DNA of 64,000 nucleotides from Thermoproteota archaeon (GTDB lineage Archaea > Korarchaeota > Korarchaeia > Korarchaeales > Korarchaeaceae), in contig JAOZGC010000002.1 in assembly GCA_027491915.1 (NCBI GenBank), forward strand, positions 96,001-160,000, read 5' to 3'. Within the stretch, counting starts at the first letter, position 1. Every line of letters begins with the position of its first letter. Below, piece by piece: positions 10,745 through 17,599 of the stretch. The position numbers and the translations under genes were made by a program. The notes under the pieces were generated by a model, which saw nothing but the letters and a program-made list of their open reading frames with translations, was not told the DNA's origin and did no database searches.

Positions 10745-12022
10745 TTGCCTCCCCAGAGAGCCGTCTATGCGGAGGACTACGGAACGTCTTACTTCAAATT
10801 CGGCCCCGTCTGGATAGGGAAATACCCGGAGATGGTAGAGAACAGGGGCTACTTTCCAAAGATATCCAAGGCCGTGGCTGAGATAAGGGGGATCGAGGCC
10901 AGGACCGTCGTGGTAGGCCCCGAGGTGTCGAACTACCTGGAATCCAGGGAAGAGTTGAGAAGGTTATACTATCCAATGCGAAACGGAGTTATCGATAGAG
11001 ATGATAGAAATGGGTGGTTAATTGTTAAAGAATTGACGAGATATGGGCTCAAGAAATTCGCCCCCGTCGGCCGCGAGTCACCCATCGGTCCCTTCGACGG
11101 CTTCTACGTTGTGGCCGCCCTGGCGGCCCAAGCCCCGAGGTACATGTACGAAGAAATCTTCTCGATACACGAGGAGATAAATTCTGAGGAGGGTGGATCT
11201 CTGGTGAAGGCCGTCACCATAATTCCGCAGCCCCTGGCGGTCGCGATAGCTGAGAAGGCCACCACCTGCACGGTCTTGGAGGCCGGCCACGGGAACACCC
11301 AAATAACCCCAATAAGCAGGGACGTCATAAGGTCGGCTCTGATACCTCTCAACCGCGGCGGCGCCGACTCGAACGCCATAACCGCCCAGATATTGAAAGA
11401 TCTTGGCTACGGAAACCTGGCTCGGGAAGAAAAATTCGTCAGGATCTTCAAGGAGATGGCCGGCCTCGTCCCGATAAACCTCGACGAGGCGGTAGAGTGG
11501 GCGAAATCCCATCCGGGCTCCCTCACGAGCTCTTTCACCGTGCCGGGAACCACCGTCAAGGTCGACATGGGGGAGAAGGCCTGGCAGCGCTTCCTGATAG
11601 GGGAGTACTTCTTCAATCCTGGCCACGAGATGTTTGAGAGCTACTATTCGGTGGGATTCACTCCCCCGAGGGACACCGTCCTGCCGGGGGAGACCATCCC
11701 GGGAGACGTTTCCCTGGCCGAGGCCATCCTCATGGCCGTGCGTAAGACACCCGTCGAGATACAACCCGGACTGCTCAGTAAGATCCTCCTATCCGGAGGG
11801 GCCTTCGGCTGGAGGGTGCCAGCTGGCCTGGAGGGAATAGCAGCCGACGCGACCCAGAAGCTGGAGACCATGCTCAGATCCCTTGGCGTGTCGACCTCCC
11901 CGAAGATGGTGGCGGAGCCCCAGTTCTCCGTGTGGCGCGGCTCGATGGTCTACGGACTGTACCTACCCGAGAGGCTCAGGTGGAGCTGGAAGAGCATGGA
12001 AGGGTGGCATCAGATAAGTTGA
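10745..12022 (+). CDS. crenactin (archaeal actin)
   Basis: DYGTSYFKFGP, YPMRNG, PQPLAVAIAE, EAGHGNTQITPIS, LNRGGA, RFLIGE, LSGGAFGWRVP, EPQFSVWRG, EGW; colinear with Thermoproteales crenactin as recalled. Confidence 0.93.
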   Translation: MPPQRAVYAEDYGTSYFKFGPVWIGKYPEMVENRGYFPKISKAVAEIRGIEARTVVVGPEVSNYLESREELRRLYYPMRNGVIDRDDRNGWLIVKELTRYGLKKFAPVGRESPIGPFDGFYVVAALAAQAPRYMYEEIFSIHEEINSEEGGSLVKAVTIIPQPLAVAIAEKATTCTVLEAGHGNTQITPISRDVIRSALIPLNRGGADSNAITAQILKDLGYGNLAREEKFVRIFKEMAGLVPINLDEAVEWAKSHPGSLTSSFTVPGTTVKVDMGEKAWQRFLIGEYFFNPGHEMFESYYSVGFTPPRDTVLPGETIPGDVSLAEAILMAVRKTPVEIQPGLLSKILLSGGAFGWRVPAGLEGIAADATQKLETMLRSLGVSTSPKMVAEPQFSVWRGSMVYGLYLPERLRWSWKSMEGWHQIS

Positions 12023-12768
12023 CGATCTAGGACCATCTTCCTGAACTCTAGGGCGTTGTTCCACATGTCCATATTGTTAAAGAGTACGTAGGCTTCTTTT
12101 TTGTTCATTTTTTCTAATTTACCCAACAAATCCTGAAATTCTTGAGTTGAATATGAATATTTATATAAAATTTTTCCATCCTTTCTCCCACCGTGTAGCC
12201 TGAAATAGGCCAAGTCTGAGCCGTCCAGAGGCCTCCGGTAGAAGGGATCCACGACGTGAATTAAATCCAGGTCGTCTAGGAGTCTGATGAGGCCGCGCTC
12301 GTCGATCCACCAACTCTCGTCTCTCGGTTCCCACCCAACCGCGAGCCCTCCCCTATCCAGAGATGAGAAGAAATCTCTCAGATCCCTCTCCGTGAGATCC
12401 GATCTCCTGAACGACGGTGGGGACTGGAAGATCACTATCTTGGAGCCCAACTTCGCCGCCACGACCCTCACCATCTCCCAAGCGGTGAAATTCCCCTCGG
12501 TGGGCCTGAGCATCCCACAATCCGCGCAATCTATTCCGGCCTTCCGCCACACCGGTCCCCCGGGGCGGTGGGTTATGGCCGCCCAGGCCTTCAACGTGTA
12601 CTCAAAATCCTTCGGCGACTCCTTCCTCCATCTCTCCACGGTCGACGCGCGGGGGATCCGGTAGAATGTACGCTGAATTTCCACCAGACCGAATTCCCTG
12701 AAATACCTCTTCCTGGAGGTCGGGAATCCGCAGCAGCCTACCTTCACCCTCATCGGGCGTCTCAACAT
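12010..12768 (-). CDS. DUF72 (YecE-like) protein
   Basis: VGCCGF, VEIQRTFYRIP, FEYTLKA..ITH, FQSPPSF, WEPR, YFRLHG, YVLFNN. Confidence 0.9.
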   Translation of the reverse strand: MLRRPMRVKVGCCGFPTSRKRYFREFGLVEIQRTFYRIPRASTVERWRKESPKDFEYTLKAWAAITHRPGGPVWRKAGIDCADCGMLRPTEGNFTAWEMVRVVAAKLGSKIVIFQSPPSFRRSDLTERDLRDFFSSLDRGGLAVGWEPRDESWWIDERGLIRLLDDLDLIHVVDPFYRRPLDGSDLAYFRLHGGRKDGKILYKYSYSTQEFQDLLGKLEKMNKKEAYVLFNNMDMWNNALEFRKMVLDRQLI

Positions 12769-12790: not shown

Positions 12791-13828
12791 GTGCGCCCTC
12801 CCAGATGGCCTATGGACCTCCCCTCAGAGGTCTACGAGATAGCCCGTGATATACGCGACATGAAGATCAGGGGAGCCGGTAGAATAGCCAGGGCGGCCGC
12901 CAAAGCTCTCCTGAAGGTGGCGCGGGAATACGAGGCCAAGGACGCGGATGATCTGGTTTCTGCGCTGCTGAGGGCATCTAAACTGCTCGTTGAGACGAGG
13001 CCGACCGCGGTCTCCCTGCCCAACGCCCTCAGGTACGTCGTGGTTAGGGTGCTGGAGGGGGTCGATAGGGGGTACGATCTGAGTGGCATAAGGGAAATCG
13101 CGTCAAAGGCTGCCGAGGAATTTACTGAGTTTTCAACACGAGCGGTCGAATACATCTCAAAATTTGGCTCACACAGGATCAGAGACGGTGATCTGATAAT
13201 GACCCACTGCAACTCGGACGCGGCGATCTCCACCCTGATACAGGCCTGGGAGGAGGGGAAAAGGTTCGAGGTCCTGGCCACCGAGACGCGGCCCAGGTTT
13301 CAGGGGAGGCTAACAGCCGCCAGGCTGGCGGATGCCGGAATCCCAGTGACCCTGATAGTGGACTCGGCGGCCAGGTACTTCATGGAAGACGTCGACGCCG
13401 TGATCGTCGGGGCGGATGCCGTCGCGGCCAACGGAGCCGTGGTGAACAAGATAGGAACCTCTTCCATAGCCCTGGCGGCCCACGAAGCCAGAGTTAACTT
13501 CTTCGTCGCGGCCGAGACCTACAAATTCTCTCCAGAGACCATGCTCGGTTCCCTCATAAGGATAGAGGAGAGAGATCCGTCCGAGGTGGTGGACCGTGAT
13601 TTCCTGGCCGCCCACCCGAACGTCAAGGTTAGAAATCCGGCCTTTGACGTGACTCCTGCGATGTATATAGACCTGATAATAACCGAGAAGGGAGTCATTC
13701 CACCCAGCGCCGCGGTGATAATACTGAAGGAGGAATACGGGTGGTTCACGAGGTCCAGGCTCCCAGAGTTTCTCACAGGCGGGTTGGGGTCGGCCAGGAT
13801 AGAGGAAGACTCCCCCACCACGGCCTGA
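12791..13828 (+). CDS. ribose-1,5-bisphosphate isomerase (eIF2B-like); start possibly ATG 12812
   Basis: IRDMKIRGAGRIA, TRPTAVSLPNA, MTHCNS, TETRPRFQG, VGADA, NKIGT, RNPAFDVTP. Confidence 0.92.
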   Translation: MRPPRWPMDLPSEVYEIARDIRDMKIRGAGRIARAAAKALLKVAREYEAKDADDLVSALLRASKLLVETRPTAVSLPNALRYVVVRVLEGVDRGYDLSGIREIASKAAEEFTEFSTRAVEYISKFGSHRIRDGDLIMTHCNSDAAISTLIQAWEEGKRFEVLATETRPRFQGRLTAARLADAGIPVTLIVDSAARYFMEDVDAVIVGADAVAANGAVVNKIGTSSIALAAHEARVNFFVAAETYKFSPETMLGSLIRIEERDPSEVVDRDFLAAHPNVKVRNPAFDVTPAMYIDLIITEKGVIPPSAAVIILKEEYGWFTRSRLPEFLTGGLGSARIEEDSPTTA

Positions 13829-13830
13829 GA

Positions 13831-14925
13831 TCACGGCCTGTACCCCCATCTCTCTAGGGCTATCCTCAGATCCTCGCTCACTTTTGCAGCCTCTAAAACA
13901 GTCTCTCCCCTCAAAAAAGCGTCTATCGCCTGCCTGATTGCTGAGATCCCACTTTCCTCTCCGTTCGGATGGAGCCATGGAGAGTCCGGCATTATTAGTA
14001 CTTCCTCAATAGAGTTCTCCAGATTAGATTCCACGGTTCCAGGGTGGATCGCCCCCTGTATCACCGGCATGGACTTCCCGATCCGGTCCTCAGAGGTCAG
14101 CGCGTTCACGGCCCGCCTGAATTCCCAAACATCCGTCCCGTTCCCAACCGCCGGAACTCCCACCATGCTGCCGCCGAGCAGCCTGGCCAGGCGGCACCTG
14201 GCCGGAGGAGACAGGCCCTCCGTCTCCCTACCGTAGACGAAAATGGGGACCGCACCGAGATTCCTCCTGAACTCCAAGAGCCCCATCCAACCTCCATATC
14301 TGAGAGAGAAGCCCAGCAGCCTCGCTCCAGAATCCATGGCTCTATTGGCGTTTTCCACCGCCTTCCACCCTGACACGTTCACCACGTAGTCCACCCTACG
14401 CCCGGTCTCCTCTCTGACCCTGTCTCTCATGTCGGCAATATGCGACGACCTGGCGCTTACCTCATCAGGCTTGACCAGCCAAGGGGGATCTACTCCGACG
14501 TCCAGGCCCCTGAGGGCAAGCTCGTAGAACCTGCGCCCCACATCAGCCGGGGCCGCGCCCGGAGGAAGTCTGATGTGGGAGGCTACTCCCGGGCCCCTCA
14601 GCCCCAGTTCCCTGGACAGGTCGATCAGCCCAACCCCGGGCCCGCCGAGGCGGGATTCGACGTCGGGGGGAACCTCGAAGTCGTTCACCATCCCCACCCG
14701 GGTCAAGTCACCGAGCACCCCTATCAGGGCCTGCTCTCCCAAATCCCGGAGGATCTCAGGCGGCAGTCGTATGGTGATCCTATCACCGTGGGTTTCTACC
14801 CTTCCCCCCATGAAAGAGGCCCACTTCTCCGCCATCTCCACGGAGTCGGAGATAGAGACCGACCCGGTCAGGTTCACCTCTATTAGTATCGTCCGCCCCG
14901 AATCCGACCCAGCCAGCGGGGCCAC
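13831..14925 (-). CDS. RuBisCO large-subunit homologue with degenerate active site (putative pseudoenzyme)
   Basis: GPGVG, REETGRRVDYVVNVSG, ARLLG, MPVIQGAIHPG, HPNG..GISAIRQAIDA...LRIALERWG; the KDDE motif is replaced by VDPP. Confidence 0.8.
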   Translation of the reverse strand: MAPLAGSDSGRTILIEVNLTGSVSISDSVEMAEKWASFMGGRVETHGDRITIRLPPEILRDLGEQALIGVLGDLTRVGMVNDFEVPPDVESRLGGPGVGLIDLSRELGLRGPGVASHIRLPPGAAPADVGRRFYELALRGLDVGVDPPWLVKPDEVSARSSHIADMRDRVREETGRRVDYVVNVSGWKAVENANRAMDSGARLLGFSLRYGGWMGLLEFRRNLGAVPIFVYGRETEGLSPPARCRLARLLGGSMVGVPAVGNGTDVWEFRRAVNALTSEDRIGKSMPVIQGAIHPGTVESNLENSIEEVLIMPDSPWLHPNGEESGISAIRQAIDAFLRGETVLEAAKVSEDLRIALERWGYRP

Positions 14926-14975
14926 CCACCACCTCCCGGCCGGGTCGTTATAATCTTCCCCCGTCCTCCGGGCCG

Positions 14976-16226
14976 GTGCCGGTGGAATTAGACCTGGACC
15001 CCGGAGAGGGCCTGCTGGTGAGAACGCCGTGCTATCTCTCGATGGCCGGCGGCGACGTGGACGTCTGGGGCCTACCCCTGGAGGGAGGCCAGCTTAGGAT
15101 AGGAATCCCGGAGCTCACCCTCCTTGTGACCGCGCGCTCTCGAACGACGCTGAGACTGGAGGCGGTCGGCCACAGGATCGTGAGGAACCCAATACCTGAG
15201 GAGTGGTGGTCGGCCGCCGAGAAGGCCAGGGATGCGGAGAGGGTAGTCATACTGGGCGAGACCGACTCTGGGAAGAGCGGGCTTCTCTTCTACCTGGCGA
15301 ACGTCCTCTCCATATCGGGACTGAGGGTGGGAATCGTGGACTCTGACCTGGGCCAGAAGGACCTGGGCCCTCCGGCCACCGTGGCGGCGGCCGCCTTCGC
15401 CTCGCCGCCCCTCCACCCCGGCCTAGCCGAGCCGGAGTTCCTGTACTTCGTCGGAGATACAAGTCCCAGGGGGCACCTCCTTCAAGTGGTCGCCGGGGTG
15501 CGCTCATCTCTGGATTACCTGGGAAGACGCCCAGACGTCACCCTAGTAAACACCAGCGGGTACGTCTCCGGGAGCGCCGCCCGGGCGCTGAAGTATCACA
15601 AGCTGGAGGTGATCAGGCCTGATCTGGTCTTCGTAATCGGCGATCGGGGAGAGGTCTCCCACTTGCCGAGGGTGATTCCCCCAGGTCCGGAGGTCCAGAT
15701 CCTGCCAGGTCCTCCGTCCATAATCAAGAAAGACCGGTCCAGGAGATACGCCGTCAGGAGGGCCAGGTGGATCCGCTACCTGTCGGGCGCCTCTGAGACT
15801 AAAGTGGATTTCTCTGAGGTCAGGGCACTCGGAACCCTCCTCTTCACCGGAAGGCCGTCTCCGGCGGCAGCCTCGTTGGCGTCGGATCTTATCGGGAGGG
15901 AGATTAACTACCTGGAGATCTCCCCGGACGTAGTCTCCATCTTGGTCGAGGGGGGGCTCTCTAGGGCGGAGATCAGGGCACTCGCCTCGTCTTTCGGGGT
16001 TGAGGTTCGTGCCGCCGCGCCGTCCTCCTACGACGGCCTCCTGGTGGGTCTCATGTCTGAGACCGGAGGCTGTTTGGGTCTGGGACTGCTGTCGGACCTC
16101 AATCCAGGTGAGATGAGGGGTTCCGTGATCTCCAGGGTAAAGAAGTTCGCTTATGTTAAATTCGGATACATAAGACTCTCCAGATCCTTGGAGGAGATCG
16201 GGAGGAGGGAGGTGGCCGCACCGTGA
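14976..16226 (+). CDS. Clp1/Grc3/Nol9-family polynucleotide 5'-hydroxyl kinase
   Basis: GETDSGKS, DSDLGQKDLGPP, YFVGDTSP, VNTSGYV, R..RR..W..Y lid. Confidence 0.88.
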   Translation: MPVELDLDPGEGLLVRTPCYLSMAGGDVDVWGLPLEGGQLRIGIPELTLLVTARSRTTLRLEAVGHRIVRNPIPEEWWSAAEKARDAERVVILGETDSGKSGLLFYLANVLSISGLRVGIVDSDLGQKDLGPPATVAAAAFASPPLHPGLAEPEFLYFVGDTSPRGHLLQVVAGVRSSLDYLGRRPDVTLVNTSGYVSGSAARALKYHKLEVIRPDLVFVIGDRGEVSHLPRVIPPGPEVQILPGPPSIIKKDRSRRYAVRRARWIRYLSGASETKVDFSEVRALGTLLFTGRPSPAAASLASDLIGREINYLEISPDVVSILVEGGLSRAEIRALASSFGVEVRAAAPSSYDGLLVGLMSETGGCLGLGLLSDLNPGEMRGSVISRVKKFAYVKFGYIRLSRSLEEIGRREVAAP

Positions 16227-17599
16227 TGATCAAGAACTTCGGGGAGCTGCTGTCTAACGCCCCCTCGGAGGTCGACAGGAAGGCCCGCTGGCTGGCCCTG
16301 TCGGCCGTAGAGGCGGCCATACGGGAGGCTGATCCGGAGGAGGCAGTGACCTCCGCCTTATCGCTCTCTAGTGGCTCCATTGAACTCCGATCCGGCCAGA
16401 CTATTCCCCTAAGCGGAAGAGTATTCGTCGTCGGGGCAGGCAAAGCCACCGGCTTGATGTGCAAGGGGGTACTCAGAGTCCTGTCGGACCTCCCAGTAGA
16501 GGGCGCGGTGAACGTGCCCCGGGGGACCGAAGGACTATTCGATCTGAACAGCGTGGAGATCACGCCCGCGGGTCACCCCCTCCCGGATAGGGGAACCCTA
16601 GAGGGAACCCGCAAGATAGTGGAGATAGCCGAGAGATCCGGCGAGGGGGACGTCCTGATCGCCCTCATATCGGGCGGCGGGTCGGCGCTCATGGAGCTCC
16701 CTGAGGGCAATATATCTCTCAATGATCTGAGAAAAATGAACGATTTATTGATAAAATCCGGAGCTAAAATACAAGAAATAAACAGCGTTCGCAAGCACGT
16801 GTCCCGCGTCAAGGGGGGGAGGCTGGCGGCCTTGGCCCAGCCAGCCAGCGTGGTGTCCCTGATAATCTCAGACGTGATAGGAGACCCCCTGGACTCCATA
16901 GCCTCCGGGCCGACCGCCCCGGATCCGACTACCTATGAAGATGCCTGGGAAGTCATCCAGAAGTACGGACTCGGAGACGATATGCCGGAATCCATCTTGG
17001 AGGTACTCAAGAGGGGGATGAGGGGAGACCTGCCGGAGACCCCCAAGCCCGGGGATCCGGTTTTCGAAAACGTGGTCAACCTCATAGTCGCCAGCAATTG
17101 GGACTCTCTGAGGGCTGCCGAGGCCGTCCTCTCCCGAAATGGCGTTAGGGTCGTCAACTTGGGCCCCCTTGTGGAGGGAGAGGCGAGGCATGTGGGAGTC
17201 GTCCTGGCCTCGATCCTGAGGGCGGCCAGCGAGGGTAGATTTTCGACACCTCCTCCCGTGGCCCTGCTGGCCGGTGGAGAAACCACGGTGAGGGTGACCG
17301 GGAGCGGAATCGGCGGGAGAAATCAAGAGCTGGTGCTCGGCGCGGTCAAGAAGCTGGCTGGCCTGCGCGGAGTCGTTCTAACTTCTGTCGGGACCGACGG
17401 GGTAGACGGAGTCACCGAGGCGGCCGGGGCCCTGGCCGACGGATCAACCCTCGACAGGGCTTACTCCATGGGAATGGACCCTGATTTCTACTTGGAGAAC
17501 AACGACTCCAACACCTTCTTCGGCAGGTTGGGCGATCTCGTGGTGACCGGGCCCACCCTAACCAACGTCATGGACGTCATGGTGGGAGTGGCCCTGTGA
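16223..17599 (+). CDS. glycerate 2-kinase (MOFRL family)
   Basis: GAGKA, GHPLPD, ISGGGSAL, RKHVSRVKGG, SDVIGD, IASGPT, GGETTV, GGRNQE, GTDGVDG, TGPTLTNVMD. Confidence 0.93.
   Translation: MMIKNFGELLSNAPSEVDRKARWLALSAVEAAIREADPEEAVTSALSLSSGSIELRSGQTIPLSGRVFVVGAGKATGLMCKGVLRVLSDLPVEGAVNVPRGTEGLFDLNSVEITPAGHPLPDRGTLEGTRKIVEIAERSGEGDVLIALISGGGSALMELPEGNISLNDLRKMNDLLIKSGAKIQEINSVRKHVSRVKGGRLAALAQPASVVSLIISDVIGDPLDSIASGPTAPDPTTYEDAWEVIQKYGLGDDMPESILEVLKRGMRGDLPETPKPGDPVFENVVNLIVASNWDSLRAAEAVLSRNGVRVVNLGPLVEGEARHVGVVLASILRAASEGRFSTPPPVALLAGGETTVRVTGSGIGGRNQELVLGAVKKLAGLRGVVLTSVGTDGVDGVTEAAGALADGSTLDRAYSMGMDPDFYLENNDSNTFFGRLGDLVVTGPTLTNVMDVMVGVAL

Follow-up and report, generated by a model that had tools for sequence, protein, structure and literature searches.

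This work concerns a RuBisCO-like paralogue encoded in a 64,000-nucleotide stretch of korarchaeal DNA (referred to here as the window), whose gene occupies positions 13831 to 14925 of the minus strand. The interpretation that we favor, and to which we would assign a probability of about 0.55, is that this protein of 364 residues is a RuBisCO-like pseudoenzyme, related to form III and restricted to one lineage, whose role is non-catalytic and independent of AMP salvage. RuBisCO-like proteins (RLPs) are the main source of insight into the use of the RuBisCO scaffold before or besides CO2 fixation and, to our knowledge, every characterized RLP is an Mg-dependent enzyme provided with the carbamylated lysine and the metal ligands. 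Should our interpretation be true, the RuBisCO scaffold would have a use unrelated to enediolate chemistry. There is also a practical side to the matter: genes of this type clear the Pfam RuBisCO_large threshold, and the metabolic reconstruction of an uncultured archaeon may wrongly count them as RuBisCO.

The starting point was the original prediction, made by reading the sequence, of an intact 364-residue open reading frame (ORF) resembling archaeal form III RuBisCO large subunit (RbcL) along the barrel and the C-terminus. The ORF is indeed uninterrupted, begins with GTG and lies on the minus strand (the prediction had omitted the strand), and the homology was recovered independently by hidden Markov model (HMM) searches, by a profile built on the paralogue clade and by an AlphaFold2 model searched with Foldseek. 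Pfam RuBisCO_large (PF00016) matched with 35.2 bits, over a cut-off of 30.1, and did so across residues 283–360 alone (13846–14079, minus strand). This stretch, which spans strands β7–β8 and the C-terminal helices, is the closest to true RuBisCO and the sole part picked up by Pfam, and it carries the common HP.G...G....R and W-G motifs plus the clade-specific D314, R339 and E341; the motifs LHPNGEESGISAIRQAIDA...LRIALERWG were found in the translation. The Pfam scan gave no match to PF02788, the N-terminal domain. Among the NCBIfam models, rubisco_III (TIGR03326) reached 63.9 bits against a cut-off of 497.45, PRK09549 (NF007095), the model for 2,3-diketo-5-methylthiopentyl-1-phosphate (DK-MTP-1P) enolase, 59.7 bits against 409 (residues 48–362), TIGR03332 (MtnW) 51.8 bits against 513.6, and OiaX 26.6 bits against 700. 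A word-based homologue search returned the protein itself and one distant match, the method being too insensitive for a family of this kind, and a protein-atlas search retrieved generic RuBisCO-family clusters alone, one of them a viral RuBisCO-domain cluster.

A clade profile made from 20 members (alignment A1) matched 99 RuBisCO or RLP sequences in the PDB at E up to 0.001, headed by form III RuBisCOs (E 1.4e-55 to 1e-52) and followed by DK-MTP-1P enolases at 1e-50. The AlphaFold2 model computed from the same alignment was confident over its whole length, with a predicted local distance difference test score (pLDDT) of 89 and a predicted template modelling score (pTM) of 0.89. Its best Foldseek matches were the form III RuBisCOs 2d69/2cwx (E 6e-25, query-normalized TM 0.82), and its superposition on RLPs and form III RuBisCOs, about 400 columns long, gave query-normalized TM values of 0.82–0.84. 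The model thus confirms, at the level of a predicted structure, a full-length RuBisCO large-subunit fold, composed of a reduced N-terminal domain (approximately residues 1–95), a (β/α)8 barrel and the C-terminal helices, and on both sequence homology and the combination of N-terminal domain and barrel the protein belongs to the large-subunit superfamily. The shortening of the N-terminal domain, also noticed originally, was borne out by a MAFFT alignment: the paralogue has 364 residues and the RbcL of the same genome 428, the 64-residue deficit being mostly N-terminal. Identity between the two proteins is 0.34 in residues 283–360 versus 0.12 in the N-terminal domain.

The protein has orthologues, which allowed the question of its conservation to be addressed. 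A HMMER scan of 1.84 billion representative proteins yielded 163 matches at E up to 0.001, of which five reached 1e-30 or better; these five include the paralogue itself. When the clade profile was run on genomes, members scored between 315.6 and 518 bits and true RbcLs no higher than 217.2 bits, a clean separation, and the clade was present in 21 of the 43 genomes of the phylum. By genus (designated here g1 to g10), it was found in 1/1 genomes of g1, 4/5 of g2, 4/5 of g3, 9/21 of g4, 2/4 of g5 and 1/2 of g6, the last belonging to another family, and in 0/5 of g7–g10. As far as the search extended, therefore, the sequences place the clade as a small group confined to one archaeal class. In an 81-row tree (IQ-TREE quick search, LG+C20 with posterior mean site frequencies, PMSF) the clade was monophyletic, with a support of 98 in the Shimodaira–Hasegawa-like approximate likelihood-ratio test (SH-aLRT), and the metagenomic protein P0005 was its sister (SH-aLRT 99). 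A starred branch divides the clade and P0005 from every form III and form IV row, and the clade sits apart from the tree groups holding labelled MtnW- or OiaX-like sequences; by this phylogeny it is placed next to the RuBisCOs of forms III and IV. An origin of the paralogue by recent duplication of the rbcL of its host was considered and rejected, as the tree puts the clade outside the group of that RbcL. Forcing the clade and P0005 together with the RbcL group of the host lineage cost 55.7 log-likelihood units (p-AU 0.025 in the approximately unbiased test), a value that constitutes weak evidence against an in-lineage duplication because the RbcL group was named after the tree had been seen and the branches are long. 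The branch of the paralogue measures 1.48, within the range of other genera, and the stem of g4 measures 2.27, a length that allows a functional shift in g4.

Three additional genes were encountered in the course of these searches. L043 (G006:C8:181-1401), situated about 10 kb from the paralogue of the same genome, is a third RuBisCO-family gene with a 440-residue frame, which scores 286.5 bits to rubisco_III, below the cut-off, and groups with the form IV-side proteins P0056 and P0017. In one g4 genome, L041 (G043:C5:99410-100210) is an N-terminally shortened paralogue at the syntenic site (334-residue frame, 178.9 bits), and L042 (G043:C9:4524-5693) is a RuBisCO-family gene of 413 residues that groups with P0052, P0073 and P0130.

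The active site was examined position by position. Seventeen catalytic and substrate-binding positions were scored (spinach numbering: E60, T65, N123, K175, K177, K201, D203, E204, H294, R295, H327, K334, S379, G380, G381, G403 and G404) in a MAFFT alignment of 122 sequences, namely the paralogue, the true RbcL of its own genome and 120 others. The paralogue retains 2 of the 17: G380 and E60, the latter in the uncertain alignment of the divergent N-terminal domain. The KPK of K175/K177 has become RLP, K201-D-D203-E204 reads V-D-P-P, H294/R295 are replaced by Y/G (R295 being a gap in the larger alignment), H327 by G, S379-G-G by Q-G-A and G403/G404 by D/S, while loop-6 K334 is absent; in the N-terminal domain, T65 is changed to G and N123 to D. 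Every substitution listed in the original prediction was reproduced by MAFFT against the host's own RbcL, and the statement that the protein is more degenerate than characterized form IV RLPs was supported for the MtnW type: MtnW-type representatives above the NCBIfam cut-offs (n=4) keep 9–10 of the 17 positions, always including K175, K201, D203, E204 and H294, where the paralogue has R, V, P, P and Y. True form III sequences (n=14) keep 17/17.

This loss is shared by the orthologues. All 15 aligned clade members keep between 0 and 4 of the 17 positions; K201, D203 and E204 are gone from all of them, bar E204 in three g2 sequences, and K175, K201, D203 and H294 are lost clade-wide apart from a single g2 member that keeps K175. 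Sequence comparison shows, then, that the clade has replaced the carbamylated lysine, the metal ligands, the phosphate-binding residues, the loop-6 lysine and the N-terminal domain residues contributed by the partner subunit and, because these are replaced, that its members would be able neither to carboxylate ribulose 1,5-bisphosphate (RuBP) nor to catalyze the enolase-type, Mg-dependent reactions of known RLPs. Measured against the established classes, the paralogue falls short of the TIGR03326 cut-off and lacks K201/D203/E204 and the RuBP-binding and catalytic residues of a bona fide form III enzyme; it likewise has neither the scores nor the retained K175/K201/D203/E204/H294 of an MtnW or DK-MTP-1P enolase, and it corresponds to an RLP in the broad sense, that is, a RuBisCO fold with a substituted active site. 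Such extreme degeneracy is not unique to the clade, since 11 RuBisCO homologues outside it (P0036, P0018, P0097, P0099, P0117, P0147, P0080, P0098, P0107, P0132 and P0148) also keep no more than 4/17 positions. Complete active-site loss seems, from these sequences, to have happened several times among RuBisCO homologues. Two of the eleven, P0036 and P0018, are placed within the form III side of the tree.

A gene that has lost its active site might simply be decaying, and the original prediction had seen in the open frame a sign of selection. That view was upheld by the dN/dS ratios (Nei–Gojobori) of 12 within-genus orthologue pairs, which ranged from 0.053 to 0.196 in 12/12 pairs and from 0.095 to 0.14 in g4, the g2 and g4 pairs being unsaturated. 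The range resembles those of the neighboring CLP1-like (0.10–0.20) and DUF72 (0.07–0.20) genes, the crenactin, isomerase and MOFRL genes of the same region lying at 0.01–0.07. The orthologues are under purifying selection and not in neutral decay, and it follows that the protein has a function. With the catalytic residues lost and purifying selection documented in the orthologues of other genera, two attributes expected of a pseudoenzyme are found together.

What the function might be connected to was suggested by the gene next door. The original prediction placed the end of the frame 2 nt from the gene for the enzyme that makes RuBP, and that gene (12791–13828, plus strand) is a ribose-1,5-bisphosphate (R15P) isomerase of the e2b2 family, with 433.9 bits to TIGR00511 (cut-off 314.1). 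The two stop codons, 2 nt apart, meet tail-to-tail, a convergent orientation that had gone unmentioned; being convergent, the pair is not an operon and is not co-transcribed. Elsewhere, the host assembly (1.12 Mb, 91% complete) encodes, on the same contig, a bona fide form III RbcL with every motif intact (616.8 bits) and, in addition, has two AMP phosphorylases of 634.9 and 598.5 bits (TIGR03327 cut-off 535), located outside the window at G000:C4:201544-203052 and G000:C4:633009-634475. The intact rbcL and the AMP phosphorylase that the prediction had deemed worth seeking are thus both there and, with the isomerase, they make the AMP-salvage pathway complete without the paralogue. Two AMP phosphorylases also occur in most relatives belonging to g2 and g3. 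Another gene of the e2b2/IF-2B family lies outside the window at G000:C1:80239-81147 and gives 221.6 bits to TIGR00511, below the cut-off; judged by its sequence it is probably an MtnA- or aIF-2B-type paralogue, and genes of this sub-cut-off type are the sole family members in g4 genomes.

The relation to AMP salvage was examined by comparing genomes. RbcL, R15P isomerase and AMP phosphorylase were found above their families' cut-offs in 0/21 genomes of g4, a set that includes several genomes 98–99% complete and one consisting of a single contig. Nine of these g4 genomes have the paralogue at the syntenic site, five of the nine being 96–99% complete. Conversely, two g5 genomes, G008 and G004 (82% and 87% complete), contain all three pathway genes with the paralogue slot empty: only 58 nt separate the CLP1-like gene from the isomerase in G008, a gap of about 600 nt exists in G004, and neither resembles the paralogue. 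The slot is also cleanly vacated in 5/5 examined g4 genomes lacking the gene, in which 158–390 nt run from DUF72 to the CLP1-like gene with no HMM match at E≤10. As the paralogue is kept where the pathway genes were not found above cut-off and is dispensable where all three are present, its function is independent of RbcL, of the isomerase and of AMP phosphorylase.

These observations can be integrated in a model in which the paralogue would act non-catalytically, most likely as a RuBisCO-fold binding or scaffold protein, and by analogy with all solved members of the family would form a homodimer. The simplest explanation for its position tail-to-tail with the isomerase would be that it is a relic of an old rbcL–e2b2 linkage, with catalysis lost by the resident rbcL copy and carried out by another rbcL, of form III-b. 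A more specific version, which we put forward tentatively and at slightly less than even odds, is that the clade represents a genuine RuBisCO pseudoenzyme family devoid of activity, maintained by selection in six genera or more because of a role in binding, scaffolding or regulation, that has outlived the loss of AMP salvage in one genus and perhaps derives from a former resident rbcL beside e2b2 that was displaced by form III-b rbcL.

Several points weigh against this interpretation. The paralogue lacks some residues conserved in the clade (R257 is V, E315 is S and S154 is D) and is the most divergent member outside g4, with 376.6 bits to the clade profile versus 424–518. The conserved polar residues peculiar to the clade, namely D314, N301, R339, E341 and the R found at the K175 position, could make up a new site. 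The 12/12 adjacency to the isomerase, extending across a family boundary, exceeds what a relic of linkage requires. Finally, the dN/dS values of g3 and g5 are rough because dS exceeds 1, and selection on the host's own copy is deduced from orthologues because the host genus has one genome.

The first of the alternatives, that the barrel has gained a different active site and catalyzes some other reaction, is the one that survives best, although we judge it unlikely, at something like one chance in five. Purifying selection on the orthologues is in its favor, and several RLPs of once unassigned function have turned out to be enzymes, with NCBIfam models now existing for MtnW and OiaX. The polar residues just mentioned are also well conserved among the 15 clade members, with D314 (at the G403 position) and N301 in 14/15, R339 and E341 in 15/15 and R at K175 in 10/15; together with G111, F133, G144 and R176, the residues D314, N301, R339 and E341 make up the clade-specific conserved set, and in most genera the H327 position reads E-R-P and G403/G404 read D-E. 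Against such a site stands the pattern of conservation as a whole. Residues invariant in the clade are mostly glycines, prolines and scaffold positions shared with RbcL (P96, G99, G140, E173, G175, G200, R248 and G251, as well as H319-P320-G322, G326 and W360), and the alignment offers no polar residue at the barrel mouth or strand ends common to all six clade genera: the paralogue has G-V-P and D-S where most have E-R-P and D-E, and g3 and g6 differ again. R339 and E341, judged by alignment to RbcL, belong to C-terminal helices and not to the barrel mouth, and the metal ligands and phosphate sites of every characterized family member are gone.

A somewhat less probable alternative, which we regard as doubtful, is the one closest to the original prediction of a structural subunit, assembly factor or regulator: a non-catalytic partner in AMP salvage, which would regulate flux through dead heterodimers formed with form III RbcL, or else would bind the R15P isomerase. 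RuBisCO active sites span the dimer interface, and for this reason a heterodimer containing the paralogue would be inactive. The isomerase adjoins the paralogue convergently in 12/12 genomes with both genes, including G025 of another family, where the other neighbors are different, and 11 of these 12 have an RbcL above the cut-off; the twelfth, G025, has a RuBisCO-like match in a 418-residue frame. This adjacency lends weak support to a pathway-linked role in the genera with both genes. Retention of the gene in nine g4 genomes at a dN/dS of about 0.1, its absence from two g5 genomes with the full pathway and the convergent arrangement itself, which precludes co-transcription, all speak against partnership, as does the distribution of identity between genera: the N-terminal domain, which would contact the active site of the partner, is the least conserved part (0.19) and the β7–β8/C-terminal part the most conserved (0.38). 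A complex prediction for the isomerase and the paralogue gave a score of 0.00, no answer at all, and counts as evidence neither way. What remains of the original proposal is, accordingly, its first half, namely a RuBisCO fold under selection that has lost the catalytic set, and not the assignment to RbcL or the isomerase.

Finally, it is very improbable that the host copy is a relic in decay, with orthologues that may be functional but a frame of its own left open by chance: it does have the lowest profile score outside g4 and has lost several clade-conserved residues, its genus offers no second genome for a dN/dS estimate and long spurious ORFs occur in this DNA of about 60% G+C, but 364 codons run without stop or frameshift, the homology and the confidently predicted fold are full-length, the 19 clade-invariant residues of alignment A1 are all present (by construction of the list) and its branch length is unexceptional.

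Turning to the locus, the start of the paralogue is separated by a divergent intergenic region of 50 nt (14926–14975) from that of a gene for a CLP1_P-type P-loop protein (14976–16226, plus strand), which overlaps in turn the gene for a DUF4147/MOFRL glycerate-2-kinase-like protein (16223–17599, plus strand), both identified with Pfam and NCBIfam. The spacer holds a single central TATA-like element, TTATAAT (14948–14954), about 22–26 nt from both GTG starts. Orthologous spacers of g2 and g4 (L029, L033 and L036–L038) are 34–53 nt long with one central A/T-rich element each, a conservation suggesting that the region may be a shared bidirectional archaeal promoter giving leaderless mRNAs. The divergent layout of the paralogue and the CLP1-type–MOFRL pair is kept in the g1, g2, g3 and g4 loci. 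Downstream, beyond the isomerase, lies a DUF72 gene (12010–12768, minus strand; Pfam), which in g4 genomes without the isomerase (L036–L038) lies directly behind the paralogue in the same orientation and shares 22 nt with it. The wider block is of a housekeeping nature, comprising an aspartyl/asparaginyl-tRNA synthetase-like protein, ERCC4, an RPA-like OB-fold protein, RtcA, Ogt, crenactin and DUF72. The crenactin homologue (10745–12022) scores 587.2 bits, just below the NCBIfam equivalog cut-off of 630, and is the best conserved gene of the block, being 65–74% identical across the family. Where the locus is rearranged, the neighbors show no functional theme, either in g5 (amidohydrolase and riboflavin-kinase-like genes) or in g6 (metallophosphoesterase, amidohydrolase and carbamoyltransferase genes). 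In one g4 genome, the CLP1-like gene of L049 (G022:C35, 114–1098) was recovered by tblastn as three pieces covering query residues 70–401 alone, and may be frameshifted or broken.

RLPs are already a known kind of protein, and the question is how this clade relates to those described. In public records the orthologues carry generic names alone (hypothetical protein; RuBisCO large subunit C-terminal-like domain-containing protein; ribulose 1,5-bisphosphate carboxylase large subunit-like protein) under organisms labelled Korarchaeota, Thermoproteota or Bathyarchaeota, in agreement with the original suspicion that the protein is undescribed. Jaffe et al. 2019 reported, in the part of the paper available to us, six RLP clades, each with its own partial set of active-site substitutions, along with divergent phage forms (PMC6389311), and the accessible part of a 2026 survey of Korarchaeota describes, on the basis of above-threshold K01601 hits, form III-b RbcL together with AMP phosphorylase and e2b2 in some clades (PMC12787533). 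Neither of these portions of the two papers mentions the present clade, and no paper on it was found in the literature; the supplementary figures of PMC12787533 (RbcL tree and gene presence table) might include it.

Form III RuBisCOs (6hun, 2cwx/2d69, 1geh/3a13) are the nearest known system, as they provide both the best profile matches (E 1e-55 to 1e-52) and the best fold matches (TM 0.82–0.84), and share with the paralogue the two-domain architecture and the scaffold motifs F.GP..G, E.TG, R..G, HP.G and W-G. They differ in that the paralogue scores 63.9 bits where 497.45 are required, has 15/17 positions replaced and a shortened N-terminal domain, and stands outside the tree group that holds the RbcL of its own genome. 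The MtnW/YkrW enzymes of form IV (2oek, 2zvi), second in both profile and fold comparisons, resemble it as RuBisCO folds without carboxylase activity, but they keep K175, K201, D203, E204 and H294, which the clade does not, apart from the few g2 residues noted above, and they fall in a different, starred tree group. IV-Photo (the Chlorobium tepidum RLP, 1ykw/1tel), the OiaX-type proteins of the apiose pathway and the phage form IV-like proteins match the fold at E of about 1e-23; their key residues are partially conserved, according to what was available of PMC6389311, while the loss in the paralogue is essentially complete. A further comparison is provided by P0005, a metagenomic protein of 422 residues and 37% identity to the paralogue, relatives of which were not found among genome contigs and metagenome contigs. 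Like the clade, it has V in place of K201 and acidic residues in place of G403/G404, and it differs in keeping 8/17 positions (E60, T65, K175, K177, E204, R295, G380 and G381) and a full N-terminal domain (64.5 bits to Pfam RuBisCO_large_N), so that by its sequence it looks like a less degenerate stage. If our interpretation of the paralogue is correct, the clade and this partly degenerate sister would offer a natural series of intermediate stages.

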